From: Polyangiales bacterium
Lineage (GTDB): Bacteria > Myxococcota_A > Polyangia > Polyangiales > Ga0077539
Length of the DNA: 64,000 nucleotides
Assembly (NCBI GenBank): GCA_044229975.1
Contig: JBGARZ010000026.1
Span: 32,001-96,000 of the forward strand
Direction of reading: 5' to 3'
Shown: in pieces, positions 7,094 through 43,568 of the stretch
Layout of the letters: every line of letters begins with the position of its first letter
Position numbering within the stretch: position 1 is the first letter of the stretch
Made by a program: the position numbers and the translations under genes
Notes under the pieces: model-generated
The model's input: the letters and a program-made list of their open reading frames with translations, nothing else
Told to the model about the DNA's origin: nothing
The model's database searches: none

Positions 7094-8101
7094 ATGAACC
7101 GGTATTCGACCCTTCTTCTCTCTGGCCTTCTCGCCGGCTCCATCGGCGCCTGCAGCAGCGACCCGGCCGTCCCCACCGACGCCGGCAACCCTGCCGGTGA
7201 CACCGGCGTCACGGGCGACGGCGGCGCCTGCACCCCCAACACCATCGCCATGCCGGCGGCGAGCACCACCGGCTGCACGGCCCCGACGGTCGACGGCGGC
7301 GCGGTGCCCTTCTACCAGTGCGGCAGCGAAAACCTCTGTCCCCCCGGCCGCTTCACCAACCCCGCGATGGCCCCGGGCTTCCGCCTCACGTACATCAAGA
7401 TCGTCGCGCCCGAGGCGCTCGCCAGCATGGCGATTCTCTCGGTCATCAACCCGACGCTCGCGCGCGGCTCCTTCCTCTGGGGCCTCAAGCTCGACCTCGC
7501 GTCCAACACCTTCCGCACCGGCGGCCTCAACCCGATGTTCACCCGCGGCACGCGGGGCGTCGGCCTGATGGACGGCACCTACTCCTTCTTCAACAACAAC
7601 GGCCCTGGCGCCGAGCCCGCCCGCTACAACCCCATCATGGGCGCCGTCACGGTGACCGGCGACCGCGCCAGCACGGCGATGGTGACCACCACGGTCAACA
7701 TCCCGATCTTCAGCGACGAGGCCGGCACCATGCTGCTGACCCAGCTCCCCATGGACAACGCGCGCATCAGCAACGTGCACCTCACGGCCGACCGCGGCTG
7801 CATCGGCGGCGGCATCCCCTCGGGCGGTCGCTACACCGAGACCACCAGCCGCTGGCTCACCGAAGACAGCTGCGACAACCCCTACGGCACCGTCGACGCG
7901 GACATCACGGTCGAAAACGCGAAGACCGTGAGCGTCACCATCGGCGGCAGCCCGACGCCCCTCTGCAACATCATCTCGGGCGCCAACTGCATGACCGACC
8001 CGCAGTCGGGCTGGCCGCGCCAGCCCAACGCGACGGTCAACGGCATGCCCGCGTACCACCTGCGCGCGAACTTCGCCGCCATCTCCGCCAACATCCAGTG
8101 A
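7094..8101 (+). CDS. Cys-rich lipoprotein of unknown function
   Basis: GGAGG RBS, signal peptide ending SIGA|C, DAG/DTG linker, several Cys, strong GC3 codon bias. Confidence 0.75.
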   Translation: MNRYSTLLLSGLLAGSIGACSSDPAVPTDAGNPAGDTGVTGDGGACTPNTIAMPAASTTGCTAPTVDGGAVPFYQCGSENLCPPGRFTNPAMAPGFRLTYIKIVAPEALASMAILSVINPTLARGSFLWGLKLDLASNTFRTGGLNPMFTRGTRGVGLMDGTYSFFNNNGPGAEPARYNPIMGAVTVTGDRASTAMVTTTVNIPIFSDEAGTMLLTQLPMDNARISNVHLTADRGCIGGGIPSGGRYTETTSRWLTEDSCDNPYGTVDADITVENAKTVSVTIGGSPTPLCNIISGANCMTDPQSGWPRQPNATVNGMPAYHLRANFAAISANIQ

Positions 8102-8318: not shown

Positions 8319-11300
8319 ATGTGGTCGACGCTGCACAAGGTGTACTGGATGCTCGCCGTGATCCTGATTTCAGGGTGCGGCGGCGGTGGTTGTTCGGGCT
8401 GTGCGGGCGGGGCCATCGCGCCGATCCCGGGCGGCTACCCCCTCGCGCCTGAGACGCGCATCCCGCGCGCCGCGCAGATCCGTTTGACGGAGGGCGGCCT
8501 CAACCGCATCGAGGCCGTCGCGCCGAGCCTGCTCGGCGGGCTTGTCGGCTCGGGCATCCCGGTGCCCACCATCTCGCAGAACCTCTCCGTCGGCCGCGCC
8601 ATCGTGTGCCCGTCGGGCAGCTGCCCCATCCGCATCACGCTGCCCGCCACCAACGCGCTCGACCTCGGCTTCGCCGAGCCCAACGCCATTGGTGTTCGGG
8701 CACGCGTCGAGATCAACGGCGACATCCCCATCCGCGCCTGCGTCGGCTCGTGCAACGACCGCTGCGGCGGAACCTTCTGCGGCACCATCGCGTCGCCCAC
8801 GCTCAACATCAACACGGCGCGCGGCGGGCACCCGTACATCGGCCTGTCGACGCGGGCGACCATCCGCCGCGACACGCACGCGCAGCGGCTCAACTACCAC
8901 CGCGCCGACATCGTCTCCCCGACGGGCTCGGGCGACGCCGTGCAGGAGACGCCCGGCGAGGGCATCGAAAACGAAGACATCTCCTGCAACGACAGCTGGG
9001 TCTGCGGGATCATCAACCTCCTCCGCGGCACCATCGTCGGCCTCGTGCGCGACCAGATCAGCGGCGCGCTCGGCCCCATCGCCGACGCGCTCGCGATGAG
9101 CGACACCAACCCGCCGGGCTGCCCGACGGGTACCACCGCCCGCAGCGGCTCGTGCGTGTACCCCGACAACACCAACGTGCCGACGCTGCTCGGCACCGAC
9201 GGCGCGGGCAACTTCGGCGCCCTCTTCGCGTCGCTCTCGCCGGGCGTGCGCGCCAACGTCGCCTACACCCTCGCGGCGGGTGATCCCACCGCGGACTCGC
9301 AGGTCATCAACGGCGGCATGTCCATCAACATGTTCGGCGCGATGCAGTCGGCGGGTCACAACGCCTGCGTGCCGCGCCTCCCCGCGCCGGCCATCCCGAC
9401 CATCCCCGAGTACATGGCCCTGCGCGGCAACGTGGTGCCCGGCACCATGACCCCCATCGACCTCGGCATCGGCATCGCGGAGGAGTTCCTCAACTACTCG
9501 GCGTTCCAGCTGTGGGACGCGGGCACGCTCTGCCTCGGCGTCGGCACCAACCTCAGCCAGCAGATCTCGGCGGGCACCTTCGCCATCCTCCCGGCGCTCT
9601 CCTCGATGCGCCAGATCCTCTTCCCCGCCACCACCGGTCCGGTGGCCATCGTACTGCGCCCGCAGCAGCCCCCGGCCGTCCGCATCGGCCGCGGCACCAA
9701 CGTCGACACCGACCCGCTGCTCGGCATCCGCCTGCCGCGCCTCGCGCTCGACTTCTACGCCTGGAGCGAGGAGCGCTACGTGCGCTTCATGACCCTGACC
9801 ACCGACGCCGTCGTCGGCGTCAACCTCGAAGCCGACGCGGGCGGTCTGCTGCCGCGCCTCGGGCAGCTCCGCACCGAGAACATCACGGTCTCCAACAACA
9901 CGCTGCTCTCCAACAACCCGGCCCTCATCGGCACCTCGCTGTCGGCCATCCTGGGCCCGGCGCTCGGCATGCTGGGCGGCAGCTTGAGCCCCATCGCGAT
10001 CCCGGGCTTCGACGTCCCGGGCAGCGGCGGCTCCACCCTCGGCCGCGTGGCCATCAACATCCCCGCTGGCGGCGTGCAGGGCGTGACCGAGGGCAGCAAC
10101 CGCTTCCTCGGACTCTTCGCGGGCATCGCGTTCACCCCGGCGGGCTCGCGGCCCAGCACCGCGACCCTCGACACCATCGCGACCCTCGACGCCGTGCGCG
10201 TCGAGCCGGCGTTCTTCCGCTCGGCGGCGGGCTTCACGCAGGAGAACCTCCCCCACGTGGCCTTCCACGTGAGCTCGCCCAACGACCTCGGCCACCCGGT
10301 CGAGTACTCGTGGCGCATCGACCGCCAGACCTGGTCGAGCTTCAGCACCGAGACCCAGTACGACATCCAGGACTTCGCCTTCGCGGGCCCCGGTCGTCAC
10401 ACCATCGCGGTGCGCGCGCGCATCGCGGGTGAGCCCAGCACGGCCGACAGCGAGCCGGCGCAGTTCACCTTCATCATCGACCCCGTCGCGCCGGAGCTCT
10501 CCGCGCACCTCGACCAGGGCGCCGTCATCGCCGAGGCGACCGACAACCAGAACACCGCGCTGGAGTATTCGTTCCAGTTCGACAACGGCCCCGCCTCGGA
10601 GTGGGGCGCGTCGGATCGCGCGGACGTCCCCGAGGGCGCGACCCGCATCGTGGTGCGCGTCCGCGACGCCTCGGGCAACGTCACCGAGCGCATCATCAAC
10701 CGCCAGTCCCTCATCCGCGGCGGCGCCACCACCGACTCCGGGAGCGGCGGCTGCGGCTGCCGCGTGGCGGGCGCCTCCAGCAACAGCAGCGGTCGCGGAT
10801 CGGCGGGCCTGCTCGGGCTCTTCGCCGCGGGCGTGGTGATCGCGGCGCGTCGTCGTCGCCGGGCCAGCGCCCGCGTCGCGGCGGCGCTCGTCGCCGCCAC
10901 CGGCGCCGTCGCCGTCGGTTGCGCGGACACCAACACCGCCACCAACGCCGACGGCGGCGACGGCGGCGGCGTCGTAGGCGACAACGGCATGGTCGACCCG
11001 ATGGACGGCGGCGCCACCACCTGCGAGTCGGGGCAGAACCTCTGCGCGTCGTCGGGCATGTGCACGACCCCGCCCGCGTGCCCCGAGTGCATGCCGGGCT
11101 TCGGGCCGATGGGCGCGCCGACCTTCACGGCCGCGACCTGCGCGTACGACACCTCCGCGTGCAGTTGCGTGCGGCTGCCCCCGCTGCCCCCCGGCGCGGT
11201 GGGCTCTCACCTGCACATGGCCGCCGCGGCCGATGGTGCCATCTGGATGTCCGCGTACTCGCCGGGCGAGCCGACGGACGTCGCCCGCTACGGAGACCTC

Positions 11301-12527
11301 GTGGTCGGCCGCTGGGCGCAGGAGACGAGCTCGGTGGCGTGGACCCACGTCGACGGCGTTCCGGCGACGGGGATGGTGACGGGCGACCCGATGGGCTGGC
11401 GCAACGGCGTCAGCACGCCGGGCGACGACGTCGGGCGCTTCAACAGCATCGCCCTCAACGCCGCCAACCAGCCGCGGGTCGCGTACTGGGACACCACCAA
11501 CGACAAGCTGAAGTTCGCGGCCTTCGATGGCACCGCGTGGTCGGCGCACACCGTCGACGCGCAGGGCTCCAACGGCCGCTACGCCTCGCTCGCGCTGCTC
11601 GCCGACGGCACGCCGCTCGTCGCGTACCGCGCGGTGGCCGTGTCCGCCGACGGCCAGGTGCGGTCGGTGGTGCGCGTCGCTCGCGGCAACAGCGCGACGC
11701 CCGCCCGCGCCACCGACTGGACCATCTCCGACGCCGTGACGCTCCCCAGCCGATGCCGCGCTACCGATTGCGCGACGGGTCAGTCGTGCGTGGAGAGCAC
11801 GGGCCGCTGCGCCCCCGCGGGCACCTGCGCCGCCACCTGCGGCTCGGGTCAGGCGTGCGTGGGCACCACCTGCCAGGACATCATCGAGCGCACCTTCGTC
11901 GAAGACCTGCCCCCCGGCGCGCTCTTCATCAACCTGCTCATCGACGGCATGGGCCGTCCGGCGCTGGTGTTCTACAACCGCGACCGCGGCAACCTGATGT
12001 TCGCGCAGGGCAACGCGATGGGGATGTTTGCGGCGCCGGTGATCCTCGACGGCGAAGGCGCGATGGCGCGCGACACCGGCGACCGGGGCATCTCGGCGAC
12101 CGCGACGGTGGAGGGTGCCAACACCATCCACGTGGCCTACGTCGACGGCTGGGAGGAGCGGCTGATGTACCTCCGCGTCGTCAACGGAGCGCCCATGGGC
12201 GCGCCCGCGGTGGTCGACGACGGCTCTGGCGTCGGGACGACCATGAGCTTCGAAGACGGTCGGCACATCGTGGGTGACGGCGCCTCGGTGATCGTCGGCA
12301 CCGGCGGTCTTCGCATCGCCTACCAGGACGCCACCGTCGGAACGCTCCGTCTCGCGTCCCTCACGGGCTCGGGGATGGCCGCCACGTGGACGCGCTCGGT
12401 GGTCGACTCGATGAACCACACGGGCTATTGGGCCTCGACCTCGCGCGGCTTCATCGGAACCTACTGGCGCGACCTGTCCGACTCGTCGATGCGGCGCTGG
12501 GGCGTGCGGGTCTTCCCGCTGCCCTGA
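8319..12527 (+). CDS. 1402-aa multidomain lipoprotein: BPI/LBP-like N-region, Ig-like domains, internal MYXO-CTERM-like motif, second lipobox, Cys-rich and beta-repeat C-region
   Basis: N-terminal lipobox ISG|C; internal GGCGC-linker-TM-RRRRR followed by VAAALVAATGAVAVG|C; uninterrupted ORF with coding-type codon bias. Confidence 0.8.
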   Translation: MWSTLHKVYWMLAVILISGCGGGGCSGCAGGAIAPIPGGYPLAPETRIPRAAQIRLTEGGLNRIEAVAPSLLGGLVGSGIPVPTISQNLSVGRAIVCPSGSCPIRITLPATNALDLGFAEPNAIGVRARVEINGDIPIRACVGSCNDRCGGTFCGTIASPTLNINTARGGHPYIGLSTRATIRRDTHAQRLNYHRADIVSPTGSGDAVQETPGEGIENEDISCNDSWVCGIINLLRGTIVGLVRDQISGALGPIADALAMSDTNPPGCPTGTTARSGSCVYPDNTNVPTLLGTDGAGNFGALFASLSPGVRANVAYTLAAGDPTADSQVINGGMSINMFGAMQSAGHNACVPRLPAPAIPTIPEYMALRGNVVPGTMTPIDLGIGIAEEFLNYSAFQLWDAGTLCLGVGTNLSQQISAGTFAILPALSSMRQILFPATTGPVAIVLRPQQPPAVRIGRGTNVDTDPLLGIRLPRLALDFYAWSEERYVRFMTLTTDAVVGVNLEADAGGLLPRLGQLRTENITVSNNTLLSNNPALIGTSLSAILGPALGMLGGSLSPIAIPGFDVPGSGGSTLGRVAINIPAGGVQGVTEGSNRFLGLFAGIAFTPAGSRPSTATLDTIATLDAVRVEPAFFRSAAGFTQENLPHVAFHVSSPNDLGHPVEYSWRIDRQTWSSFSTETQYDIQDFAFAGPGRHTIAVRARIAGEPSTADSEPAQFTFIIDPVAPELSAHLDQGAVIAEATDNQNTALEYSFQFDNGPASEWGASDRADVPEGATRIVVRVRDASGNVTERIINRQSLIRGGATTDSGSGGCGCRVAGASSNSSGRGSAGLLGLFAAGVVIAARRRRRASARVAAALVAATGAVAVGCADTNTATNADGGDGGGVVGDNGMVDPMDGGATTCESGQNLCASSGMCTTPPACPECMPGFGPMGAPTFTAATCAYDTSACSCVRLPPLPPGAVGSHLHMAAAADGAIWMSAYSPGEPTDVARYGDLVVGRWAQETSSVAWTHVDGVPATGMVTGDPMGWRNGVSTPGDDVGRFNSIALNAANQPRVAYWDTTNDKLKFAAFDGTAWSAHTVDAQGSNGRYASLALLADGTPLVAYRAVAVSADGQVRSVVRVARGNSATPARATDWTISDAVTLPSRCRATDCATGQSCVESTGRCAPAGTCAATCGSGQACVGTTCQDIIERTFVEDLPPGALFINLLIDGMGRPALVFYNRDRGNLMFAQGNAMGMFAAPVILDGEGAMARDTGDRGISATATVEGANTIHVAYVDGWEERLMYLRVVNGAPMGAPAVVDDGSGVGTTMSFEDGRHIVGDGASVIVGTGGLRIAYQDATVGTLRLASLTGSGMAATWTRSVVDSMNHTGYWASTSRGFIGTYWRDLSDSSMRRWGVRVFPLP

Positions 12528-12601: not shown

Positions 12602-12689
12602 GTCGGCGTGGCGGAATGGCATACGCAGGTGGCTTAAAACCACCGGGGACGACAGTCTCGTGCGGGTTCGACCCCCGCCGCCGATACCA
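12602..12689 (+). tRNA. tRNA-Leu, anticodon TAA (reads UUA)
   Basis: Acceptor stem GTCGGCG/CGCCGAT, anticodon arm GGTGG-CTTAAAA-CCACC, long variable arm, GGTTCGAC T-loop, encoded ACCA end. Confidence 0.95.
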
Positions 12690-12741: not shown

Positions 12742-12996
12742 TCAGCTCGCGAGGGCGGTGAGCTTCTCTTCGACGAAGCGATGCACGCTGGTGAGCGTGG
12801 AGATGTTCTTGAACTCGCTCTCGGCGATCTTGAGGTGATAGCGCCGCTCGATGTCCGAGATGATCTCGATGGCCTGCATCGAGTCGACGCCGAGCTCGCG
12901 CAGCGGAACGTCGTCGCCGATGGCGTCGGCGTCCTTCTCGATGACCTCGGCGATGAGGGCGCGGAGGTCTTCCTTCAAGCTGACCGGGGTGGACAT
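12742..12996 (-). CDS. Acyl carrier protein 2
   Basis: 84 aa, acidic, LGVDSM phosphopantetheine motif; GGAG upstream of the ATG. Confidence 0.9.
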   Translation of the reverse strand: MSTPVSLKEDLRALIAEVIEKDADAIGDDVPLRELGVDSMQAIEIISDIERRYHLKIAESEFKNISTLTSVHRFVEEKLTALAS

Positions 12997-13010
12997 GGCG
13001 GCTGCTCCGT

Positions 13011-13256
13011 TCACGCGTTGGTGCGCTTCTGAACCAGGTCGACGAGCTGCGCGACGGTGGAGATGCCCACGAGCTGGTCGTCCGGAATCTGGATCTTGAA
13101 CTCGCGCTCCATCTCACCAACGATCTCGAGCATCCCAAGGGAGTCGATGCCGAGGTCGCTGATCGCCGTCTTGTCGTTGGGCAGTGGGATGTCCTTCTCG
13201 GCGACCTTGCTGGCGATCTCGCGGAAGGTGGTGAGCAACTGGTCTCGTGCGATCAT
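13011..13256 (-). CDS. Acyl carrier protein 1
   Basis: About 81 aa, DLGIDSLGMLEIVGEMEREFKIQIPDD; start trimmed from the long ORF. Confidence 0.9.
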   Translation of the reverse strand: MIARDQLLTTFREIASKVAEKDIPLPNDKTAISDLGIDSLGMLEIVGEMEREFKIQIPDDQLVGISTVAQLVDLVQKRTNA

Positions 13257-13327
13257 CGGGGCGACGCGCTCCATGGGGTGGTCATTGGGTGAGCGGCGAA
13301 GAGGCGCGCTCCAGGCGAGCGGTTCAT

Positions 13328-13343
13328 CGCAGCGATCGTGCCT
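13328..13343 (-). promoter_or_regulatory. Candidate sigma54 (-24/-12) promoter for the ACP pair
   Basis: Minus strand AGGCACG-ATCG-CTGCG has GG-N10-GC spacing; a TTGACA lies just upstream at 13347-13352. Confidence 0.4.
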
Positions 13344-13447
13344 GCCTGTCAAGGCGCGCAACCCCCGAGAACACAAGCGTTTCGTGCACGTCTGAAGTGC
13401 GTAGTCGGCGTGGCGGTGGGCACCCCTTTTCGCGCCCCGCCCACGGC

Positions 13448-13477
13448 TTGCTGGCGTCGCGGCGCATCGGCTATAGC
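13448..13477 (+). promoter_or_regulatory. Candidate sigma70-type promoter for the KS operon (near-leaderless)
   Basis: TTGCTG-N18-TATAGC ending 9 nt before the ATG at 13486; no RBS visible. Confidence 0.3.
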
Positions 13478-13485
13478 CCGCGCCG

Positions 13486-14733
13486 ATGGCACCTCGGGTC
13501 CTCATCACCGGGATGGGCGTGGTCAGCTCGATCGGGCTGGGCCGCGAGGCGTTCTGGCGTTCGCTCTCCCGTGGCGTGAGCGGCACCTCGCCCATCGCCT
13601 CCTTCGACACGTCGCGCCTCGGCCGCTCGCTCGCCGCCGAGGTGCAGGGCTTCCGTCCCACGGATCACCTCTCGGCCGTCGAGGCGACGCGCGCCGGTCG
13701 CTGCGCCGCCTTCGCGATGGCCGCCGCTCGCATGGCCGTGCGCGACGCGGGCCTCGGCGACGCTGCGCTCCGCACCGAGCGCGCCAGCGTCGTGCTCGGA
13801 ACCACCATGGGCGAGGCCGACGTCTGCGGGCTCCTCGACGCGCGGTGGATCCACGACGGCGCCGACGCGATGTCGGCGCGGGTGATTCCGAAGTACGCGC
13901 CGTACCTGCTCGCGATGGAGACGGCGCGCGCGCTCGGCTGTCGCGGCACGGTGCTCACGCTGCCGGCGGCATGCGCAGCGGGCAACTACGCCATCGGGTA
14001 CGCGAGCGATCTCATCCGCGCGGGCCGCGCCGACGTGGTCATCACGGGCGCCTCGGAGATGCTGCAAGAACTTCAGTTCGCGGGCTTCGTCCGGCTGGGC
14101 GCGGTCGCCCCGGAGCGCTGCCAGCCCTTCGACCTCGAACGCCAGGGTCTCATCGTCGGCGAAGGCGCCGGGGTGCTGGTGCTGGAGTCCGAGGCCCACG
14201 CGGTGCGCCGCGGCGCGACGGCGCTCGCCGAGGTCGGCGGCTACGGCCTCGCGTGCGACGCCTTCCACATCACGCGACCCGAACCCTCCGGCGCGGGGAT
14301 CATCCACGCCATCCGCGAGTCCATCCGTCGCTCGGGGCTGACGGCGACGGACGTGGACTTCATCAACGCCCACGGCACGGCGACCAAGGCCAACGACGTG
14401 GTGGAGTCGACGGCGGTGCGTGAAGTGTTTGGCGGGCGAGCGGTTCCGCTCACGTCGGTGAAGAGCCTCATCGGGCACTGCATGGGCGCGGCGAGCGCCA
14501 TCGAGGCGGTGAGCTGCGTCGAGACCATCCTCACGGGCGTCTATCCACCGACCGTGGGCTACACGACGCCCGACCCGGAGTGCGACGTGGCCGTGGTCGC
14601 CAACGAGGCGGGACGTGGGCGCGCCGACGTGGTGCTCAACCATTCTCTGGCCTTCGGTGGCTACGACGCGGTGGTGCTCTTCGCGAAGCCCGATCGCCTG
14701 CCGCCGCCCGACGCGCGTGAGGTGTCGGCGTGA
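13486..14733 (+). CDS. Beta-ketoacyl-ACP synthase (FabF-like / type II KS-alpha)
   Basis: VLITGMGVVS, catalytic AA-C-AAG, NAHGTAT, KSLIGHCMGA, SLAFGG. Confidence 0.93.
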   Translation: MAPRVLITGMGVVSSIGLGREAFWRSLSRGVSGTSPIASFDTSRLGRSLAAEVQGFRPTDHLSAVEATRAGRCAAFAMAAARMAVRDAGLGDAALRTERASVVLGTTMGEADVCGLLDARWIHDGADAMSARVIPKYAPYLLAMETARALGCRGTVLTLPAACAAGNYAIGYASDLIRAGRADVVITGASEMLQELQFAGFVRLGAVAPERCQPFDLERQGLIVGEGAGVLVLESEAHAVRRGATALAEVGGYGLACDAFHITRPEPSGAGIIHAIRESIRRSGLTATDVDFINAHGTATKANDVVESTAVREVFGGRAVPLTSVKSLIGHCMGAASAIEAVSCVETILTGVYPPTVGYTTPDPECDVAVVANEAGRGRADVVLNHSLAFGGYDAVVLFAKPDRLPPPDAREVSA

Positions 14734-15884
14734 CCCCGCTCGCCCTCACCGGCTTCGGCGTCGCCTCGCCCCTCGGCCTCGGCTGGGATGCCTTTCGCGC
14801 GAGCCTCGCGGCCCCGCCGGGCGGCGCGTTTACGACGACCCCGACGAGCTTCACGCACCCGCCGCACCCGGCCCTGCGCCTCGCGGAGATCGCCAACTTC
14901 GACCCGCGCCCCATCGTCGGCGACAAGGGTCTGCGCAACAACGATCGGCTCACCCGCCTGCTCCTCGTGGCGGCGCGGCTCGGCCTCGACCACGCGGGCG
15001 TGAAGCGCGAAGCGGCCTTCATCGCGCTCGGCCCCACGGAGGTCGGCGTGTGCGCGTCGACGGCGTACGGGAGCCTGGAGGCCATCCACGAGCTCGACAC
15101 GGTCTCGCGGCTCGAAGACCCGCGGTACATCAACCCGGCGCGCTTCCCCAACACGGTCATCAACAGCTCCGTCGGGTACGTGAGCATCTGGGAAGACCTG
15201 CGCGCCCTCAACGCGACCATCACCAACGGCCCCACCGGGGGCCTCGACGCCTTCGACGCCGCGTCGCTCTGGCTCGCCGCGGGGCGCGCGAAGGCCGTGC
15301 TCACGGGTGGCGCCGAGGCGTCGTCCGAGGGGCTGTGGCACGCGCTTCGACGACTCGGCGTGCTCGACGAGACGCCCGCGACCTGGGCGCCCGGCGACCC
15401 CGCCTCGCGAGGGCTGCGGCTCGGTGAGGGCGCGTGTCTGATGGTGCTCGAAGAGACCGCTGCGGCGAGGGCGCGAGGCGCGACGGTCCACGCGGAGGTC
15501 GTCGGGTACGGCGCGGCGTTTGAGCCGACGGACGACAGCGCGCCGATGGTTCATGTGAGCGGCGAGGCGCTGGCGCGTGCGGTGCGGATGGCGCTCGCGG
15601 ACGCAGGCATCGAGCGCTCGCGGGTGGCGATGGCAGTGAGCGGACTCGGCGGGCTACCGGCCCTTGATGGGCCCGAGCGCGCTGCGATCGCCGCGGTGCT
15701 GGACGGCGTCGAGATCAAGACGCCGAAGTCGTGGTGCGGTGAGACGCTCGGCGCGGCGGGGGCCTTCGGGGTCGCCGCGGCGAGCGCATGGTTGGCGGAC
15801 CGGAGCGCGGGCGACTGCGCGGTAGTGACATCCGTCGGGTTCTACGGAAACGCGTCGGCGCTGGTGGTTCGACGTGCGGAGTGA
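14730..15884 (+). CDS. Catalytically inactive KS homolog (chain-length-factor-like)
   Basis: TGFGVASPLG, NPARFPNTV, GEGA; Cys replaced (NGPTGG) and both His lost (SGLGG, GETLGA); GTGA overlap with the KS. Confidence 0.85.
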   Translation: MTPLALTGFGVASPLGLGWDAFRASLAAPPGGAFTTTPTSFTHPPHPALRLAEIANFDPRPIVGDKGLRNNDRLTRLLLVAARLGLDHAGVKREAAFIALGPTEVGVCASTAYGSLEAIHELDTVSRLEDPRYINPARFPNTVINSSVGYVSIWEDLRALNATITNGPTGGLDAFDAASLWLAAGRAKAVLTGGAEASSEGLWHALRRLGVLDETPATWAPGDPASRGLRLGEGACLMVLEETAAARARGATVHAEVVGYGAAFEPTDDSAPMVHVSGEALARAVRMALADAGIERSRVAMAVSGLGGLPALDGPERAAIAAVLDGVEIKTPKSWCGETLGAAGAFGVAAASAWLADRSAGDCAVVTSVGFYGNASALVVRRAE

Positions 15885-15887
15885 GCG

Positions 15888-17120
15888 ATGAGCTGGATCG
15901 ATGACAAGGCCCACGAGGGTCTGGCGAGGGTGCGCGAGGCGCGCGAGGCCGGGGTGTATCCGTTCTTCCGGGCCTTCGAGAGCGGGGGATTGCGGACGAC
16001 GGTCGAGGGTCACGCCTTCGTCAACTTCAGCTCCAACGACTACCTCGGGCTCACCAACCACCCGAAGGTGAAGGAGGCCGCCAAGCGCGCGGTGGACGTC
16101 TTCGCGTGTGGGCTGTCGAGCTCGCGCGTGCAGGCCACCACCACGGCCCACGTGGAGATCGAAGACCGCCTCGCGAAGTACTTTGGCTTCGAGAAGGCGC
16201 TCGTCACCACCACGGGCTACCAGGCAATGGTCGCGACCATCATGGCGCTCGCCGACCGCGACACGGCGCTCATCCTCGACAACCTGTCGCACGCCTGCAT
16301 CCTCGACGGGACGTTCCTCGCGGCGGGCACGCCGGGCCGTGCGCCCGAGGTGCGCTTCTTCAACCACAACAGCGCGCGCTCGCTGGAGCGGGTGCTCAAG
16401 TCGCGCGAGCGCCCCAACGCGCTGGTGCTGGTCGAGGGCATCTACTCGCTCGACGGCGACATGGGGAAGCTCGCCGAGATCATCGAGGTGTGCGACCGCC
16501 ACGGCGCCGTTCTCGTCGTCGACGACGCCCACGGCTCCGGGACGCTCGGCACCCACGGGCGCGGCATCCTCGAACACCTCGGCCTGGAGGGTCGCGCGCC
16601 CATCGTGGTGTCGACCTTCTCCAAGGTCTTCGGCGGCATCGGCGGCATCATCCTCGGCGGCACCGAGGTCATCGACCACATCAAGCACACCGCGCGCAGC
16701 TTCGTGTTCAGCGCGACGCTCCCGGTGCCCATCGTGGCGGCGGCGTCGACCATCCTCACCATGCTGGAGGAGGAGGGCCCCGCCCTGGTCGCGGAGCTCC
16801 ACGACAACGCGAAGTACATGCGGGCACAGCTCCTCGACCGCGGCTTCGACCTCGGCGCGAGCGATACGCACATCATGCCGGTGATGGTGCGCGACGAGCG
16901 CAAGGCGATGATGCTCCACCACCTGCTCTACGAGCGCGGCGTGTACCTCGTCCCCATCACGTACCCCGGCGTGAAGGTCGGCGAGGAGCGCCTGCGGGTC
17001 AACGTCACCCGCGGCCACACCCGCGCCGAGATGGCGCTCGCGCTGTCGTGCCTCGAAGAGCTGGGCGCCGCCTGCGAGATCCGCAAGCAGGACGCGCAGC
17101 CCGCAGCCCCCATCGCCTGA
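15888..17120 (+). CDS. PLP-dependent alpha-oxoamine synthase (serine palmitoyltransferase/BioF/KBL family)
   Basis: SNDYLG, SHACILDG, EGIYSLDGD, DDAHG, TFSK (PLP Lys), RLRV. Confidence 0.9.
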   Translation: MSWIDDKAHEGLARVREAREAGVYPFFRAFESGGLRTTVEGHAFVNFSSNDYLGLTNHPKVKEAAKRAVDVFACGLSSSRVQATTTAHVEIEDRLAKYFGFEKALVTTTGYQAMVATIMALADRDTALILDNLSHACILDGTFLAAGTPGRAPEVRFFNHNSARSLERVLKSRERPNALVLVEGIYSLDGDMGKLAEIIEVCDRHGAVLVVDDAHGSGTLGTHGRGILEHLGLEGRAPIVVSTFSKVFGGIGGIILGGTEVIDHIKHTARSFVFSATLPVPIVAAASTILTMLEEEGPALVAELHDNAKYMRAQLLDRGFDLGASDTHIMPVMVRDERKAMMLHHLLYERGVYLVPITYPGVKVGEERLRVNVTRGHTRAEMALALSCLEELGAACEIRKQDAQPAAPIA

Positions 17121-17172
17121 GCGCTTCTTGAGCGACGGGCCGCGAGCCCGTAGCGTCGCGCCGGTTCCTGTC

Positions 17173-19458
17173 ATGTCGCCGACCCGCACCCACGTCCCCT
17201 GGCCCGAGCTCGCCGCGCTCGGCGCGCTCTTCGTCGCCGTCGCGGCGTGGAGCGGATCGGGCCGCCCGGTGGACCCGCGCGGGATGTCCCTCGCCGCGGT
17301 CGCGGTGCTCATCGCGCTCTCGCCCCGTCGGCTCACCAAGGTCGGCCACGGCGCGCAGGCCGAGGCCATCGCCGTCGCCGCTGCGCTCGGCGCGCTCTCC
17401 GTCGCCACCGTGGTCGCAGGCTTCGGCCCGCCTTCTGCGGCGCTCCGCATCGCCCACGCCCTCGCCTCGGGCGAGCTGCTCGGGCTCTCCACGGTGCTCG
17501 CCTTCGCGCAGCCCATGCGCACGTCGTCGCTGCGCCGCGCCGCGCTCCCGGGCCTCTTCGTCGCCGCGCTCGGAACCGCTGGGCTCTGGCCCGGCGCCGT
17601 CCATTGGTTCCCGGGTGCGCGTGCGCTTGCGCCCGCTGCGGCGGCCATCGCGGCGCTGCTGCACCTCGCTGCGCTCCAGCGACCGACCCCGCCCGTCGAG
17701 CGCGCCCGCTGGATCTACCCCACCCTCGGCGTCACCGCCCTCGCCCTCGCCACCGTTGCGCGGGCCCTCTCGGGGTCGGGCGACGGTGCGCTCTTCGCGT
17801 GGGGTCTCGGGGTCGCGGCTCACGTCGTCGGCCTCGTGGTCGGACACGCCGACGCCTCCGCGGCGAAGGCGGGTCCCTTCGCGCGGCGCACCTTCGCGGC
17901 CTGCCTTGGGTTCATGGCGGGAGCCGTGGCGCTGGTTTTCGGTCCCGACGCGCCGATGACGGCGATGGGCGTCGGGCTCGGCGTCGCCGCCTTTGTATTG
18001 CCGCTCATCGATCGCTGGTACCGGCCCGTCGAGGGTCGCCTGCTCGACGCCTGCGACCGCATCGAACGCAACCTCGCGCGCGCGGAGGGCCTCGATGAGC
18101 TCGCGGCGGCGGTGCTCGATCCGCTGCGCGAGGCGGCGCGAAATCTGCGAGCGCCCGCGGCGTTCTGGGTGCTCGACGGCGCGCGGGTGCTGAGGGTCGA
18201 CGTCGCGGGGACCCCGTCGGTCGGAGCGTTTTCCATCGAGGCCGAGAAGGCGCTGGTGACGTGGCTGCGAACGCGCCCGTCGGTGGTCTTCACCGACACG
18301 CTGCGGCCTCACCTCGTGCAACGTCCGGAGCTGCGGCCCGTGGCCGACGCGCTCGACGCGCATGAAGCCTTCGCGGCGGTTCCGCTGTGCGACGCCGACC
18401 AGCTCCTCGGGGTGGTGCTCGTCCCGCGCGGCGAGCGATCGACGCCCGCGAGCTTCGAGGAGGAGAGTCGCCTGGAGGTCGTTCGGCGGCTGGTGGAGGG
18501 AGCGCTGCTCCGCATCCTGGCGGCGGAGCGATCGGCCGCGCGGGCGGCAGAGGCGCAGCGTCGTGAGGCCGTGGAGAAGCGTCGCGCGGAGGATGCCGAG
18601 CGCGAGCTCACCCGCGTGGGCGCGCTGGTGGTGGAGTCGTCGTCCGTGGCGGCGCTCGGAACGCTCGCGACGAAGTGGGTCGCGTACGCCCCGGCCTCGC
18701 GGGTGTTTCAGTCGGCGCTCGACGCGCTCGCGACGACGGACGGACCGGTGGCGCTCGTCACGACGGCCAACGTGTCGGCGCGCGCGGCCGCGGCGCGACT
18801 GCACGCGCAGGGCCCGCGGGCGGCGCGCGGGCTGATGGTGTTCGACGCGTCGTCGGTGGACATGCGGGCGGTGCTGCCGGCGCTGCTCGGCGACGCGCGC
18901 GGTGAGGCGCCCTCCCCCGGTTGGCTGGAGCGCGCGGTGGGCGCGACGCTGCTCATCGAGAACGTGGTGGCCCTGGGTCACGAGGGGCTGACGGCGCTCG
19001 CGGGGGCGCTCGACCGCGGCGTCGGTCGTCGCCTCGGAGACCAGACGGCCTACGCCGTGGACGTGCGGGTGATCGTGACGCTGCCGAAGGAGCCGTCGGA
19101 GTGCGACCTGCCGGTGTCCCTGCTCCGCCGACTCATCGACCGCACGGCGCGGGTGCCGTCGCTGCGCGAGCGATCGGACGACCTCGAGTCACTCGTGTAC
19201 GCGACCATCGACCGCGCCTGCCGCTGCGCCGACCGCAGCCCCCTCGGCATCGCGCCTGACGCGCTCGCGGCGCTGCGCGCGCACGCCTGGCCCGGTGAGC
19301 TGCCCGAGCTCGATGCCGTCATCGCCCACGCCGTCGCCCACGCCCGCGGCTCGCGCATCCAGACGGACGATCTGCCGCCGGTCGTGCGCGCGTCGGTGTT
19401 CACGATCGCGCGCCGTGACGACGACGAGCACGACCGCGGCGCCAGCTACGACGACTGA
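17173..19458 (+). CDS. Multi-TM protein with GAF-like region and degenerate sigma54-activator AAA+ domain
   Basis: About 8 hydrophobic helices, then GWLERAVGATLLIENV, VDVRVI, VPSLRERSDD, HAWPGELPEL; Walker A, GAFTGA and HTH absent. Start 17128 or 17173. Confidence 0.7.
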   Translation: MSPTRTHVPWPELAALGALFVAVAAWSGSGRPVDPRGMSLAAVAVLIALSPRRLTKVGHGAQAEAIAVAAALGALSVATVVAGFGPPSAALRIAHALASGELLGLSTVLAFAQPMRTSSLRRAALPGLFVAALGTAGLWPGAVHWFPGARALAPAAAAIAALLHLAALQRPTPPVERARWIYPTLGVTALALATVARALSGSGDGALFAWGLGVAAHVVGLVVGHADASAAKAGPFARRTFAACLGFMAGAVALVFGPDAPMTAMGVGLGVAAFVLPLIDRWYRPVEGRLLDACDRIERNLARAEGLDELAAAVLDPLREAARNLRAPAAFWVLDGARVLRVDVAGTPSVGAFSIEAEKALVTWLRTRPSVVFTDTLRPHLVQRPELRPVADALDAHEAFAAVPLCDADQLLGVVLVPRGERSTPASFEEESRLEVVRRLVEGALLRILAAERSAARAAEAQRREAVEKRRAEDAERELTRVGALVVESSSVAALGTLATKWVAYAPASRVFQSALDALATTDGPVALVTTANVSARAAAARLHAQGPRAARGLMVFDASSVDMRAVLPALLGDARGEAPSPGWLERAVGATLLIENVVALGHEGLTALAGALDRGVGRRLGDQTAYAVDVRVIVTLPKEPSECDLPVSLLRRLIDRTARVPSLRERSDDLESLVYATIDRACRCADRSPLGIAPDALAALRAHAWPGELPELDAVIAHAVAHARGSRIQTDDLPPVVRASVFTIARRDDDEHDRGASYDD

Positions 19459-20222: not shown

Positions 20223-20954
20223 ATGCACCATGTGATCTACGGTTTCCTCGTCACGTTCCACCACCAGACGCCCAACGCGGGGGCGGGGCACGCGCCGGGC
20301 ACCCTGGAGCTCATCGCGCAAGCGACGCTCCCGGTGAAGCTGGTGCTCGCGCTCCTGCTCTTCTTCTCGCTGATCTGCTGGTACATCATCGGATACAAGT
20401 GGCTCTATCTCCGCCGCGCCTTCGCGGAGAACGAAGCCTTCCTCGTGATCTTCGAGCAGACGCGGCAGCTCAACGTCGCCGCCGAGGCCGCCTCACAGCG
20501 CCCGCGCAGCCCCGTCGCGGCGATGTACCGCGCGGGCTACGACGAGCTCCTGCGCGTGAAGGCCGCGTCCGATGGTGAAGACGCCCCGGGCATCGAAAAC
20601 GTCGAGCGCGCCCTGCGCCGCGCCCACGCCCGGCAGACCACCGTGCTCGAAAGCATGATCCCCTTCCTGGCGACCACCGGCAGCACGGCCCCCTTCATCG
20701 GCCTCTTCGGAACCGTCTACGGCATCATGCACGCCTTCGTGCAGCTCTCCGCGTCGCGCGACACCGCGACCATCGACCGCGTCGGCCCCGGCATCGCCGA
20801 GGCGCTCTTCACCACCGCCGTCGGCCTGGTCGCCGCCATCCCCGCGGTCATCGCGTACAACTACTTCGTGCGCCGCCTCCGCATCATCACGACGGAGATG
20901 GACATCTTCGGCAACGACTTCCTCAACATCGTGCGCCGGCACATCCTGAAGTAG
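20223..20954 (+). CDS. tolQ: TolQ/ExbB proton channel
   Basis: FLATTGSTAPFIGLFGTVYGIM, PGIAEALFTTAVGLVAAIPAVIAYN. Confidence 0.9.
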   Translation: MHHVIYGFLVTFHHQTPNAGAGHAPGTLELIAQATLPVKLVLALLLFFSLICWYIIGYKWLYLRRAFAENEAFLVIFEQTRQLNVAAEAASQRPRSPVAAMYRAGYDELLRVKAASDGEDAPGIENVERALRRAHARQTTVLESMIPFLATTGSTAPFIGLFGTVYGIMHAFVQLSASRDTATIDRVGPGIAEALFTTAVGLVAAIPAVIAYNYFVRRLRIITTEMDIFGNDFLNIVRRHILK

Positions 20955-20963
20955 CCGACGGCC

Positions 20964-21407
20964 ATGTCGTTCTCCACCAACAGCGGCGGCGGCACGGGGC
21001 CGATGAGCGAGATCAACGTCACGCCGCTCGTCGACGTGATGCTCGTGCTGCTCATCATCTTCATGGTGACCGCCCCGATGGTGCAGGCCGGCCTCCGGGT
21101 CGACCTCCCCAACGCCGAGGCCCCGGCCATCCCCAACGCCGAGCAGAAGCTCCGCATCACCATCGGTCACGAGGACGCCAACGTCCCCACGTCGCCCATC
21201 GCCGTCTGGATCGGCCGCGACAAGACCACCCTCGAACGCCTCACCGAGCAGCTCCGCGCCAACGCCATCGTGCAGCGCGACCACGAGGCGTACATCCAGG
21301 CCGACGAGAGCATTCCCTACGGCATCGTCGTGCGCGTGCTCGCCGCGATGCGCACGGCCGGGGTCGAGCGACTCGGCATCGTCACCGACCCCCTCACCAG
21401 TCAGTAA
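20964..21407 (+). CDS. tolR: TolR/ExbD
   Basis: SEINVTPLVDVMLVLLIIFMVTAPM, QADESIPYG. Confidence 0.9.
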   Translation: MSFSTNSGGGTGPMSEINVTPLVDVMLVLLIIFMVTAPMVQAGLRVDLPNAEAPAIPNAEQKLRITIGHEDANVPTSPIAVWIGRDKTTLERLTEQLRANAIVQRDHEAYIQADESIPYGIVVRVLAAMRTAGVERLGIVTDPLTSQ

Positions 21408-21410
21408 CGG

Positions 21411-22004
21411 TCACGCCGCGGCGTCGAGGCCCATCTGCTCGCGCAGCGCGCAGCGCGTGCGCCACAGCTTGCTCTTCACGGCCGCGACCGGCTGCCCCAC
21501 GGCGTCGGCGATCTCCGCGCAGGACTCTCCGCCGATGGAGCGTTCGAGGAGGGCGCGCTTGTCCGTGGGCAGGGCCTCCAGGCGATCGCTCACCCGGTCG
21601 AGGTCGACGCGGGCCATCACGTACGACTCCGGGTCGCGGAACGCGGTGCCCGCTTCGAGGTTCTGCTCGCACTCGGCGCCCGCGTGCTCGCCGAGCCGAT
21701 CGACCCCGCGCTTGCGGGCCGCCGCACGTCGCCGCTGGTAGAGCGCCGCGTTGACCACGATGCTGTACATCCAGCTCGCGACGGCCGCGTCGCCGCGGAA
21801 GCGCTCGGCGTGGCGGAGGGCGCTCACCATTCCCTCCTGCACCGCGTCCCAGGCGTCGTCCTCGTTGCGCGTCACCCGCAGCGCCGCGTGAAAGAGCCGC
21901 GACTCGTACGACCGGAAGGCCGCTTCGACGGTGCGCTTGATCTCCGGCGCCACTGCCACGAGACCCACGACCTGACGACCGCCACCACTCTGAACTTCCA
22001 CCAC
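21411..22004 (-). CDS. ECF RNA polymerase sigma factor
   Basis: Region 2 DAWDAVQE...FRGDAAVASWMYSIVVN; region 4 SCAEIADAVGQPVAAVKSKLWR; GGAGG upstream of the GTG. Confidence 0.9.
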   Translation of the reverse strand: MVEVQSGGGRQVVGLVAVAPEIKRTVEAAFRSYESRLFHAALRVTRNEDDAWDAVQEGMVSALRHAERFRGDAAVASWMYSIVVNAALYQRRRAAARKRGVDRLGEHAGAECEQNLEAGTAFRDPESYVMARVDLDRVSDRLEALPTDKRALLERSIGGESCAEIADAVGQPVAAVKSKLWRTRCALREQMGLDAAA

Positions 22005-22051
22005 GCTCGTTCAACCTCCGTCTCGGCTCCGGCCGATGTGCCCAACCTTTG

Positions 22052-22067
22052 AGCAACGTCGGTGCCA
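22052..22067 (-). promoter_or_regulatory. Sigma54 (-24/-12) promoter for the ECF sigma gene
   Basis: Minus strand TGGCAC-CGACG-TTGCT matches TGGCAC-N5-TTGC exactly, 48 nt upstream of the start. Confidence 0.8.
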
Positions 22068-22257
22068 TCCGGGAAAGACCGCGAACGTGCCTTCGCGACC
22101 ACCGACGAGGTCCACGTTCTGTGACCCCCGGCGATGCCATCGGAGGGACCACGGCATCGTTTCGTTGCACTGCGCGACGGGGCGACGGGGTGGAGCGTCT
22201 GTCCAAGGCTCGTCGGCGGCGGAGGGTTCTGGTAGTGCAACCACAGGAGCCGCGACC

Positions 22258-23184
22258 GTGACCACGCCCCCGACGCTGCGACCGCCCCCCTCGCTCGACC
22301 CGAGCGTCCCGGGCATCTCCCGACCGTCGGTTCCGTTCGCGGTCGGCGTGCCGTCCGCGCCGCCGCCCCCGTCGCCGCTGCGACAGCGAGAGCGGGTCAC
22401 CTCCAGCGATGGGTCGGGCGTGGCGATGGGCCTCTTCGCGGCGGTGGTGGTGCACGGCCTCGTGGTGTTGTTGTCGGTGCGGCTGGGGCACGCCGAGGGC
22501 AACGTCGCCACGCGACCCCACGACGCGCGCGAAGACCAGATCCTGGAGACGCACCTCCTTCAACAGGGCGGCGGGGTGTTCGATCCGCGGCAGCAGGTGC
22601 ACCGGGAGGTTCCGATTCGCGCCGAGCGCGAGGCGCCGCAGGCGGTGACGCCGACCGCCGACCCCACGCAGGTTCGCCTCGCCCCCGACGCCGGCCCGCA
22701 GGACTACATGGCCGCGATCACCCAGCGCACCCGCCGCGGATCGGGCAATCAAGACCTCGCCGAGATGGATCGCATCGCGCACATGGCAGCGCTGGAGCAG
22801 GCGGCCGATCCCACGGTCGCCGGCCCGGGTGATCCCACGGGCAGCGCGCACGGCGACACCACCGACCCGGCGCTCGCGACCCGCGGCGCCGGAACGAAGA
22901 TCGACCGCTTCCTGCGCGACCACATCCGCACGTCGGCGACGCTCACTGGCAGCGAGTCGCGCGAGGTGGTGTTTCGCATCCGCCTCGACGCGACGGGCGC
23001 CATCGAGTTGGCCGAGCAGGGTGCGTCATCGGGCAACGAGAGCCTCGACGGCGACATCCTCGGTCAGGCGCAGCGCCTCGCCACCGACCACGCCCGCATC
23101 CCCGACCTCACGCCCGAAGAACTCCAGAGCGTGGCCGGGCGCACCATCAACATCCGCGTCCCCATGGCGGGCATCACGCACTGA
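22258..23184 (+). CDS. TolA/TonB-like energy transducer
   Basis: Pro-rich N-terminus, single TM with His (AAVVVHGLVVLL), C-terminal FRIRLDATG...SSGNESLD; lies before tolB; AGGAG before the GTG. Confidence 0.7.
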   Translation: MTTPPTLRPPPSLDPSVPGISRPSVPFAVGVPSAPPPPSPLRQRERVTSSDGSGVAMGLFAAVVVHGLVVLLSVRLGHAEGNVATRPHDAREDQILETHLLQQGGGVFDPRQQVHREVPIRAEREAPQAVTPTADPTQVRLAPDAGPQDYMAAITQRTRRGSGNQDLAEMDRIAHMAALEQAADPTVAGPGDPTGSAHGDTTDPALATRGAGTKIDRFLRDHIRTSATLTGSESREVVFRIRLDATGAIELAEQGASSGNESLDGDILGQAQRLATDHARIPDLTPEELQSVAGRTINIRVPMAGITH

Positions 23185-23240
23185 CGTTCCGCGCGTCTCG
23201 CTTCGCTTCGAGGGGGAGTGTCCGTTAGAGTGCGCGGACG

Positions 23241-24527
23241 ATGCGACGGCAGCTCCCCTGGCTTCTCATCTCGGTCGCTGCGGCGGCCGCGGTGCTCCCC
23301 CCACTGCTCTCGGACGCGCAGCCGCTGCCGCCCACTCCACCGACGCCGCCGGGCAACGGCGAGCTCACCATCACCCTGTCGGGTCTCGAAGCGCGGCTCC
23401 TCCCGGTGGCCATCCCCGCCTTTCGCGGCACCGGGGGCGACGCCGTCTCCGCCATCGTCTCCAACGACCTGCGACTGAGCTCGCTCTTCCGCGTGCTCGA
23501 CGCGCGATCGTTTACCGCCGACCTCGACGCCGAGGGTCTCAACATCACCCCGGCCTCGTGGACCACCGTCGGCGCCACCGCCGTCGTGAAGGCCATGGTC
23601 ACCGGCTCCGGCGACGCGACCCGCATCGAGCTCAAGGTATGGGAGCCCGGCAGCCCCGCCGCGCCGCGCCTCACGCGCACCTACGGCCCCGGCGCGCCCC
23701 GCGCCCTCGCCCACCGCATCGCCAACGACCTCATCCTGCTCTACACGCGCACGGCGGGCGTGTTCGGGACGCGCATCGCGTTTGCGCGGCGCACGGGCAA
23801 CGGCCGCAAGCAGATCTTCTCCGTCGACTGTGATGGAGAAAACCTCTCGCAGGTCTCGGCGGGTCGGCGCCTCAACTTCACGCCCGCATGGGGCCCCGGC
23901 GGCATCTACTTCTCGTCGCAGACGCCCGACGGCTTCCTCGCGCTCTTCCGCCAGGGGCGCAGCGAGCCCGTGCTGCGCGCCGACGGGCTCGTGATGGGCG
24001 CGGCCTTCGGCGGCGGGCGCATGGCCGTGGTGCTCACCCGCGACGGCAACAGCGAGATCTACGTGGGCGGCACCGACGGGTCGAGCCTGCGCCGGCTCAC
24101 CAACGACTCCGGCGCGGACATCACCCCGGTGTGGTCGCCCGATGGGTCGAAGATCGCGTTCGTGAGCGACCGCTCGGGCGGGCCGCAGGTGTACGTGATG
24201 GACGCGGGCGGCGGCGGACAGCGCCGGGTGAGCTTCCAGGGCACGTACAACACCGGGCCCTCGTGGGCGCCCGACAGCAACACCCTCGCCTACGCGAGCC
24301 GCGGCAACGGCGGCACCGACATCTTTACGGTGGGCGTAAACGGCGGCGCGGTGCGTCGGCTCACCGAGGGTCAGGGGAGCAACACCGACCCGACGTACTC
24401 GCCCGACGGCCGGATGATCGCGTTCAGCTCCTCGCGTGGCGGCATCTTCCTGATGAACCAGGACGGCCTCAACCAGCAGCGCATCCTGCCCGGCACGGCG
24501 GAGGGTCTGCGCTGGGAGCCGCGATGA
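23241..24527 (+). CDS. tolB: TolB periplasmic beta-propeller protein
   Basis: Signal peptide, TolB_N (PVAIPAF, NDLRLS, AHRIAND, GVFGTRIAF), PD40 repeats (PVWSPDGSKIAFVSDRSG). Confidence 0.9.
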   Translation: MRRQLPWLLISVAAAAAVLPPLLSDAQPLPPTPPTPPGNGELTITLSGLEARLLPVAIPAFRGTGGDAVSAIVSNDLRLSSLFRVLDARSFTADLDAEGLNITPASWTTVGATAVVKAMVTGSGDATRIELKVWEPGSPAAPRLTRTYGPGAPRALAHRIANDLILLYTRTAGVFGTRIAFARRTGNGRKQIFSVDCDGENLSQVSAGRRLNFTPAWGPGGIYFSSQTPDGFLALFRQGRSEPVLRADGLVMGAAFGGGRMAVVLTRDGNSEIYVGGTDGSSLRRLTNDSGADITPVWSPDGSKIAFVSDRSGGPQVYVMDAGGGGQRRVSFQGTYNTGPSWAPDSNTLAYASRGNGGTDIFTVGVNGGAVRRLTEGQGSNTDPTYSPDGRMIAFSSSRGGIFLMNQDGLNQQRILPGTAEGLRWEPR

Positions 24528-35861: not shown

Positions 35862-35886
35862 GCTGTTTCCTGGAGAGACCCCGACG

Positions 35887-37677: not shown

Positions 37678-37684
37678 GTCGACG

Positions 37685-38974: not shown

Positions 38975-38997
38975 GCCAGCGGCGCCGACCCGAGAGC

Positions 38998-39402: not shown

Positions 39403-39434
39403 TCCACACCACCCACAGCCAAGGAGCCATCGGG

Positions 39435-39860: not shown

Positions 39861-39865
39861 ACCCA

Positions 39866-43561: not shown

Positions 43562-43568
43562 GGACGGG

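Follow-up and report, generated by a model that had tools for sequence, protein, structure and literature searches.

Which lipid would be made by a gene set in which an active ketosynthase (KS) and its catalytically dead homologue, a chain length factor (CLF), run straight into a pyridoxal phosphate (PLP)-dependent alpha-oxoamine synthase (AOS)? The question is raised by five genes, these three and two acyl carrier proteins (ACP1 and ACP2), in a 64,000-nucleotide stretch of a Polyangiales bacterium (GenBank assembly GCA_044229975.1, contig JBGARZ010000026.1, positions 32,001 to 96,000), hereafter the window, whose source genome (G000) is 10.0 Mb and 93% complete. From sequence comparisons, we put at roughly 0.62 the probability that the AOS starts ceramide-type lipids in place of serine palmitoyltransferase (Spt), and that the KS-CLF pair first lengthens a fatty acid on dedicated carriers. 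A search of the open full-text literature, which leaves out subscription papers, returned no paper on this cluster.

Distribution of the AOS clade and of canonical Spt

Each of 121 genomes of the order (at least 90% complete; only 10-16 candidates scored per genome) held exactly one AOS-family match at E ≤ 1e-70; none had both types and none had neither. The AOS clade was carried by 106 of them (64-87% identity to the window AOS), the other 15 having only a 38-41% match, and these same 15, and no others, match a canonical-type Spt at 67-100% identity, one that scores 450-460 bits on the Spt model. CLF was found in 88/106 AOS-clade genomes and in 0/15 canonical-Spt genomes, as well as in none of five large-genome canonical-Spt genomes. 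The 18 AOS genomes without a CLF match comprise 16 of genus g18, one with a divergent CLF beside its AOS, and one genome that is 90% complete. These counts include one unpublished genome (G239), without which they become 105/120 for AOS, 87/105 for CLF, and 118/120 for the bCerS-like gene described below. Another sample of 176 genomes, each ≥97% complete and some shared with the first, in which the canonical type was called by score band and tree-checked for a subset, gave 83 genomes with the AOS clade, 92 with canonical-type Spt, and one fragmented genome with only a sister paralogue. None had both, and across the samples searched the AOS never shared a genome with a canonical-type Spt. Six of the 176 had two matches, the extra one being the sister paralogue or, in two genomes, a partial duplicate (second matches inspected in all of them but G299). 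The canonical-type Spts of family f17 (L145-L147, L184, L235-L238) have an N-terminal extension of 120-180 residues.

Candidate ceramide genes and the search for lipid A genes

A gene resembling that of the Caulobacter N-acyltransferase bCerS (PMC11324152) was present in 119/121 genomes of the order, whichever AOS was carried. Canonical Spt lies directly before this gene in G297 and, among the 15 canonical-Spt genomes of the first set, in four where the locus made it visible, and a canonical-type Spt once precedes an epimerase-type short-chain dehydrogenase/reductase (SDR); in G026, the bCerS-like gene adjoins the clade AOS itself. The source genome has a single copy (G000:C32:944733-945926), a GNAT match with 35% identity (E 1.6e-71) to YghO of Escherichia coli BL21, where yghO adjoins an operon of fatty acyl-AMP ligase (FAAL), epimerase, ACP and spt, and with 48-51% identity to the gene beside canonical-type Spt. 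We infer that this GNAT is probably bCerS. Candidates for CerR in G000 are several extended SDRs at 26-35% identity, one of them 4 kb from the bCerS-like gene.

Searches for lpxC, lpxB and lpxK in G000 (93% complete) found none of the three, while control genomes gave matches, and lpxC reached the family cut-off in 0/121 genomes of the order. Divergent LpxC-like genes below that cut-off (47-127 of 187 bits) occur in 24/121 genomes, mostly in families f11 and f17. Sphingolipids are reported to replace lipopolysaccharide (LPS) in Sorangium (PMC10572746). Because G000 has a bCerS-like gene, no canonical Spt, and no lipid A pathway that we could find, it would need a source of long-chain bases, for which the AOS is the only candidate.

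Identity of the AOS

The AOS gene (15888..17120, plus strand) encodes a GVYPFFR motif and the residues of the fold-type I alpha-oxoamine synthase family, namely His135, Asp212, His215, Lys246 (within TFSK246) and Arg370, and its structure model has a predicted local distance difference test score (pLDDT) of 92. The best PDB sequence match is the Spt of Sphingobacterium multivorum (SmSPT) at 232 bits, against 224 for a Thermus-type BioF/Kbl enzyme. The same order holds in structure, where SmSPT gives Z 54.6 (root-mean-square deviation 1.3 over 388 positions), Kbl 52.1 (2.1) and BioF 48.6 (2.2). By the residue roles reported for SmSPT (PMC10196870), the AOS keeps Asn52, Ser81, His138, Thr241, Ser243 and Lys244 together with the TFSK motif; with SmSPT and the canonical myxobacterial Spts it shares YPxF, Ser81-Arg82, TFSK and FSA. 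The PLP motif reads STFSKV, versus GTFSKS expected in Spt, and the position of SmSPT Met271 is altered.

Other members of the family fit less well. The AOS misses the Kbl cut-off (254/493 bits), and a separate Kbl of the genome passes it with 658 bits. The residues Lys280 and Ala82, reported to bind cysteate in CapB-type enzymes (PMC13692747), are Ala276 and Ser79 in the AOS, which speaks against a cysteate acyltransferase (CapB/SulA). A role in biotin synthesis, in which FAAL and KS-CLF would build pimeloyl-ACP for the AOS as a second BioF, draws on a BioF model score of 311 bits against 317 for the Spt model (BioF being slightly higher for two orthologues) and on the preference of an anammox relative of the KS-CLF for C8 chains. 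We regard it as close to negligible, since the AOS falls outside the BioF group in trees and adjoins no bio genes, and G000 has a BioF-clade gene of its own, which immediately precedes bioD, as well as bioB elsewhere in the genome. Moreover, 21/121 genomes have no bioD match, and the AOS is present in 18 of the 20 listed, including genera g5 (bioD 0/6) and g7 (0/2). Grouping with BioF, together with complementation of a bioF mutant, had been named by the first-pass annotation, a reading of the DNA made from its letters alone, as a finding that would tell against an SPT-like enzyme.

The AOS clade is distinct in two trees (SH-aLRT 99-100), both quick SH-aLRT trees without bootstrap. With long branches dropped, a 36-row tree joins the AOS and its sister group to Spt against BioF and Kbl (SH-aLRT 96); its rows are those of a 68-row set minus 41 (the long branches L191, L193, L194, L195 and L208, and redundant rows) plus nine new ones. 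By sequence, then, the AOS is not a canonical Spt, given its own clade and sub-cut-off model scores, but appears nearer to Spt than to BioF or Kbl, and it would occupy the place of Spt.

The KS-CLF pair

The KS gene (13486..14733, plus strand) encodes the triad Cys163-His296-His331 and the gate residue Phe390, and overlaps the CLF gene (14730..15884, plus strand) through GTGA; the CLF has Pro168, Ser304 and Glu338 at the triad positions, and the AOS starts three bases past its stop. An active KS coupled to a dead homologue, with an oxoamine synthase right behind, was thus read correctly at the outset. Triad and gate are intact in 35/36 KS orthologues scored, the remaining one being a broken partial, and Phe139 and Val143 of the CLF are conserved in 15/15 CLF rows. 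The pair has the make-up of a KS-CLF heterodimer, in which an active KS is coupled to a homologue that lacks the triad and has a tunnel-lining F..V. It lacks that of a highly reducing type II polyketide synthase (PKS), for a dedicated ketoreductase (KR) or dehydratase (DH) was found neither in the window nor among 34 relative-locus proteins scanned.

The best PDB matches of the KS are 9S5H_B (362 bits), the ishigamide KS (296 bits) and FabF (≤275 bits), and that of the CLF is 9S5H_C (141 bits vs 112 for the next). The CLF model (pLDDT 87) shows a thiolase fold; a fold search with it returned FabF-type matches, 9S5H not among them, and its Atlas matches carry only KS-domain names. Judged by these sequence matches, the pair is nearest to the anammox amxFabF2/amxFabFmut and ishigamide (Iga11/Iga12) pairs, which share the dead triad, and not to aromatic or aryl-polyene PKS. 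We take 9S5H/9S5I to be the Brocadia amxFabF2/FabFmut pair on the basis of residue numbering, the code itself not appearing in the text of the preprint (bioRxiv 10.64898/2026.05.19.726425). According to that preprint, Phe135 and Val139 of the dead subunit amxFabFmut shape the tunnel; they correspond to Phe139 and Val143 of the CLF. It also describes C8 probes as reacting faster than C16, C16 as fitting by modelling, and decarboxylation as the sole activity detected, and it offers a precedent for a KS/CLF heterodimer in membrane-lipid synthesis. Unlike the anammox and ishigamide systems, the window cluster has no FabZ, radical SAM protein or dedicated KR/DH, and ends in an oxoamine synthase. 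The likeness supports a heterodimeric elongase, by analogy, and is compatible with more than one chain length.

Carrier proteins and acyl supply

The two ACP genes are minus-strand tandem neighbours, both divergent from KS, and encode proteins that share 28% identity, in agreement with the initial description of two different carriers. ACP2 (12742..12996, minus strand, DSM motif, Pfam PP-binding 1e-15) preferably starts at ATG 12996, although GTG 13014 upstream is also open; relatives begin at the equivalent Met. ACP1 (13011..13256, minus strand, DSL motif, PP-binding 2e-13) preferably starts at ATG 13256, with 13274 also open. All five reading frames are intact, with a GC content at third codon positions of 0.89-0.96.

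ACP1 is the only, albeit weak (E 1.6e-5), G000 match of E. coli BL21 AcpR, and its gene comes after FAAL in relatives. It is likely the FAAL-loaded primer carrier, whereas ACP2 probably supplies the AOS with its acyl chain. Genus g18 retains ACP2 as the only cluster partner beside the AOS (CLF 0/16, FAAL 0/16), with an ACP1 orthologue in 0/5 of its genomes tested. As only ACP2 and the AOS are kept there, ACP2 may well be the carrier that works with the AOS, with FAAL, ACP1 and KS-CLF forming an upstream unit.

In G000, the FAAL candidate is unlinked (G000:C38:214709-216376); it is 50% identical to in-cluster FAALs and is the best match of E. coli AasR. Across 37 relative loci, the extra genes are FAAL (11 loci), 4HBT thioesterase (10, each past ACP2), acyl-ACP desaturase (8) and CMAS methyltransferase (2). 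The source genome has a CMAS homologue on contig C23 (56%, unlinked to the cluster) and no desaturase match, and Labilithrix luteola has no match to the in-cluster-type methyltransferase. FabD and FabZ were not found with distant queries, the only ones used. In 5/37 loci (L030, L031, L039, L050 and L056), a conserved 88-residue protein without a Pfam family is encoded just past ACP2; it has no match in G000.

A ligase, a dedicated ACP and an oxoamine synthase are also the parts of the AasR-AcpR-Spt system, which works with bCerS and CerR in Caulobacter crescentus and E. coli BL21 (PMC9386255, PMC11324152), and G000 has bCerS-like GNAT and CerR-like SDR candidates as well. Unlike that system, the window cluster adds a KS-CLF pair and has two ACPs, the bCerS-like and SDR genes are unlinked, and the AOS, which shares only 34% identity with E. 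coli Spt, sits in a separate clade.

A proposed route

FAAL would load a fatty acid onto ACP1, and KS-CLF would then condense this acyl group with malonyl-ACP2, so that the chain would grow by two or more carbons. Since the cluster has no dedicated reductase or dehydratase, enzymes of fatty acid synthesis would have to carry out any reduction. From acyl-ACP2 and L-serine, the AOS would make a 3-keto long-chain base, which the bCerS-like GNAT would N-acylate and a CerR-like SDR would reduce, giving ceramide-type lipids that would serve an outer membrane without LPS. As a precedent, an Spt that receives its substrate from an acyl-ACP synthetase by way of a dedicated ACP has been described (PMC9386255). 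More tentatively, and in our estimate rather improbably, KS-CLF might leave a 3-oxo, 3-hydroxy or trans-2-enoyl group on acyl-ACP2, and the remodelled AOS might accept it, so that a sphingosine-type (4E-unsaturated or 5-oxygenated) base would be formed on the carrier without an O2-dependent C4 desaturase.

Conservation across Polyangiales

KS and CLF are adjacent in 37/37 relative loci, which were fetched around CLF orthologues. In 30 of these, the AOS lies past CLF on the same strand; it is elsewhere in six, and a contig end cuts one. Among 80 named loci, many of them truncated and some from the same genomes as the 37, KS was found in 73, AOS in 61, ACP2 in 61, ACP1 in 53, FAAL in 41, thioesterase in 21 and desaturase in 4. 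CLF occurs in 16/151 genomes of a phylum sample, all 16 from the order Polyangiales, and most of its named relatives are filed under Polyangiales, Polyangiaceae, Sandaracinaceae or Labilithrix. A single-contig genome of 1.8 Mb retains the whole set, as FAAL-ACP1-ACP2 and KS-CLF-AOS, and the cultured Labilithrix luteola DSM 27648 carries the cluster (locus L087). The genes thus co-occur across the order, where failure to do so had been named beforehand as a ground for rejection. The cluster is a core gene set of Polyangiales and looks like a housekeeping envelope-lipid module, not a specialised-metabolite cluster. Frameshifts, possibly sequencing errors, were seen in AOS, KS or CLF of L027 (G002), L043 (G037), L050 (G021) and L034 (G025).

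Observations that weigh against the proposed route

Several observations pull against a ceramide-type route that starts with the AOS, and the first concern the enzyme itself. It is below every NCBIfam cut-off, scoring 317/640 (Spt-CFB), 273/500 and 223/670 bits on the Spt models, whereas canonical-type myxobacterial Spts score 450-560 on the Spt model, though also under the cut-off. Since the Kbl of G000 scores 309 on the Spt-CFB model, nearly equal to the AOS, we rejected model ranking as proof of Spt identity. The AOS lies outside the canonical Spt clade in both trees, and the 68-row tree leaves its placement unresolved. The original proposal, a dedicated elongase that feeds an SPT-like enzyme, is supported, with the refinement that the AOS does not belong to canonical Spt; the non-standard long-chain base that it names stays a putative product.

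The AOS also differs from SmSPT and the canonical enzymes in its pocket, having Ser for Gly80 in 29/29 clade rows, a deletion of Phe83, which walls the acyl site in SmSPT, Met for Asn117, and a BioF-like ERLR. Such remodelling would suit the same assembly line using alanine or glycine, which would yield 1-deoxy-type bases or another aminoketone lipid, and SmSPT is reported to take Ala and Gly weakly. Because the AOS retains Asn52, Ser81 and Ser243 of Spt, and its FSA motif as well, we consider this alternative quite improbable. As first-shell swaps reportedly failed to turn a cysteate enzyme to serine use (PMC13692747), pocket residues predict the substrate poorly either way.

The AOS is kept in all 16 g18 genomes without CLF or FAAL, so KS-CLF would be dispensable for its role, and in some lineages (6/37 loci) the set is broken up, with the AOS moved off and ACP2 remaining with KS-CLF. 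This could mean that AOS and ACP2 substitute for Spt, and that FAAL, ACP1 and KS-CLF separately make a particular fatty acid for the N-acyl chain or another lipid, with release by the thioesterase found past ACP2 in a minority of loci. We hold this to be unlikely, as CLF was found in 0/15 canonical-Spt genomes, although these have the bCerS-like gene and so should require N-acyl chains too, and the AOS follows CLF on the same strand in most loci. In the tree of ligases, moreover, the G000 FAAL takes an unresolved basal position, which leaves it no more than a possible orthologue of the in-cluster FAALs. By analogy, the C8 preference of the anammox pair, with the same two tunnel residues here, somewhat disfavours a single extension of a C14-C16 primer by the proposed elongase.

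A sister clade of the AOS (L230-L234, in G304, G286, G309, G298 and G299; five genomes, 43-47% identity) lies in PKS-type clusters in 3/5 loci, with ACP, phosphopantetheinyl transferase, SDRs, enoyl-CoA hydratase (ECH) and HMG-CoA synthase; HMG-CoA synthase and ECH occur in one of the three, and ACP with phosphopantetheinyl transferase, or SDRs, stand beside the AOS paralogue. This, and the absence of KR and DH from the cluster, would fit a line in which a beta-ketoacyl chain and glycine or serine cyclise to an alkyl-pyrrolinone-type signal or pigment, with no ceramide. In RedL of prodiginine synthesis, ligase, ACP, KS, second ACP and oxoamine synthase stand in line much like FAAL-ACP-KS-ACP-AOS. 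PigH, of the same type, is reported to combine two carrier domains with a serine-using PLP domain (PMC3870968). The window system differs from both: its proteins are separate, a CLF takes the place of the modular KS-AT, genes for proline loading or condensation are missing, and it has a core-genome distribution. Such a product is very improbable in our view, because it leaves unexplained the exclusion with canonical-type Spt, a near-universal bCerS-like gene otherwise without Spt, retention in genomes of 1.8-3.4 Mb, and an AOS without KS in 16 genomes.

Returning to the ceramide-type route, the distribution itself calls for caution. Kin among the genomes counted are not independent, and because the canonical Spts, although spread over two families, group in a single clade, the swap between AOS and Spt may represent only one or two events. 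That YghO is bCerS is our presumption, from gene position. Sorangium cellulosum So ce56 reportedly makes a C9-methyl C20 sphingosine, which would suit a desaturase, a methyltransferase and an elongase acting together; a link between its sphingolipids and the cluster was dropped. S. cellulosum, in which sphingolipids have been measured, is reported to have a Bacteroidetes-type Spt (PMC9386255), so its lipids are no test of the cluster; likewise, the large-genome genera g192, g195 and g198 carry canonical-type Spt and no CLF.

Genomic surroundings

In Pfam scans of 49 window reading frames, bio genes, cyclases, KR and DH were all absent, as had been noted initially. The cluster neighbours sucCD, tol-pal, type II secretion and kinase genes, and the region is housekeeping in character. 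A promoter and terminator scan found nothing, a plasmid search gave no match above 39%, and homologue searches brought up generic names and nothing more specific. A tRNA-Leu(TAA) gene (12602-12689, plus strand) lies just beyond the 3' end of ACP2, without signs of an island. Despite this tRNA gene, we rejected an island or a recent transfer, because the GC content of the cluster agrees with that of its flanks and synteny is kept within the family.

Upstream lie a lipoprotein-like frame of 335 residues (7094-8101, plus strand) and a secreted-looking protein of 1402 residues (8319-12527, plus strand), whose MYXO-CTERM-like segment is internal, 550 residues still coming after it; neither has a Pfam family, and both are syntenic with the cluster across much of family f1. 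Starting seven bases past the AOS, and likely co-transcribed with it, is a gene for a membrane-anchored GAF and degenerate sigma-54 activator (17128-19458, plus strand), which adjoins the AOS in several f1 genera. Tol-pal-type genes occupy 20223-24527, and a run of type II secretion genes (GspD, E, F, J and unassigned frames) occupies 33288-46784 (plus strand). Just upstream of the window is a separate cluster (L244, G000:C35:11500-31400), which we take to be of the aryl polyene type, with three KS, a short Ketoacyl-synt_2 CLF, an ACP, a halogenase-like flavoprotein, a lipid A-type acyltransferase, a LolA-like protein and a DUF3261 protein.

Implications for sphingolipid synthesis in the order

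Five small soluble proteins and a ligase make a set that can be reconstituted, and a cultured strain that carries the cluster is available. If a sphingosine-type base is indeed built on the carrier, the main envelope lipid of most of the order would arise by a polyketide-like route, and the optional ACP-bound desaturase and methyltransferase steps would tune it. The anammox preprint calls its CLF the first for a fatty acid pathway (bioRxiv 10.64898/2026.05.19.726425); should the AOS start ceramide-type lipids as proposed, its clade is one coupled to a chain length factor. Bacterial sphingolipid potential has been predicted from proteins of the Spt clade, homologues outside it being judged probably uninvolved (PMC11334938). 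If the AOS does take the place of Spt, such screens may overlook the enzyme clade on which most Polyangiales lineages rely.

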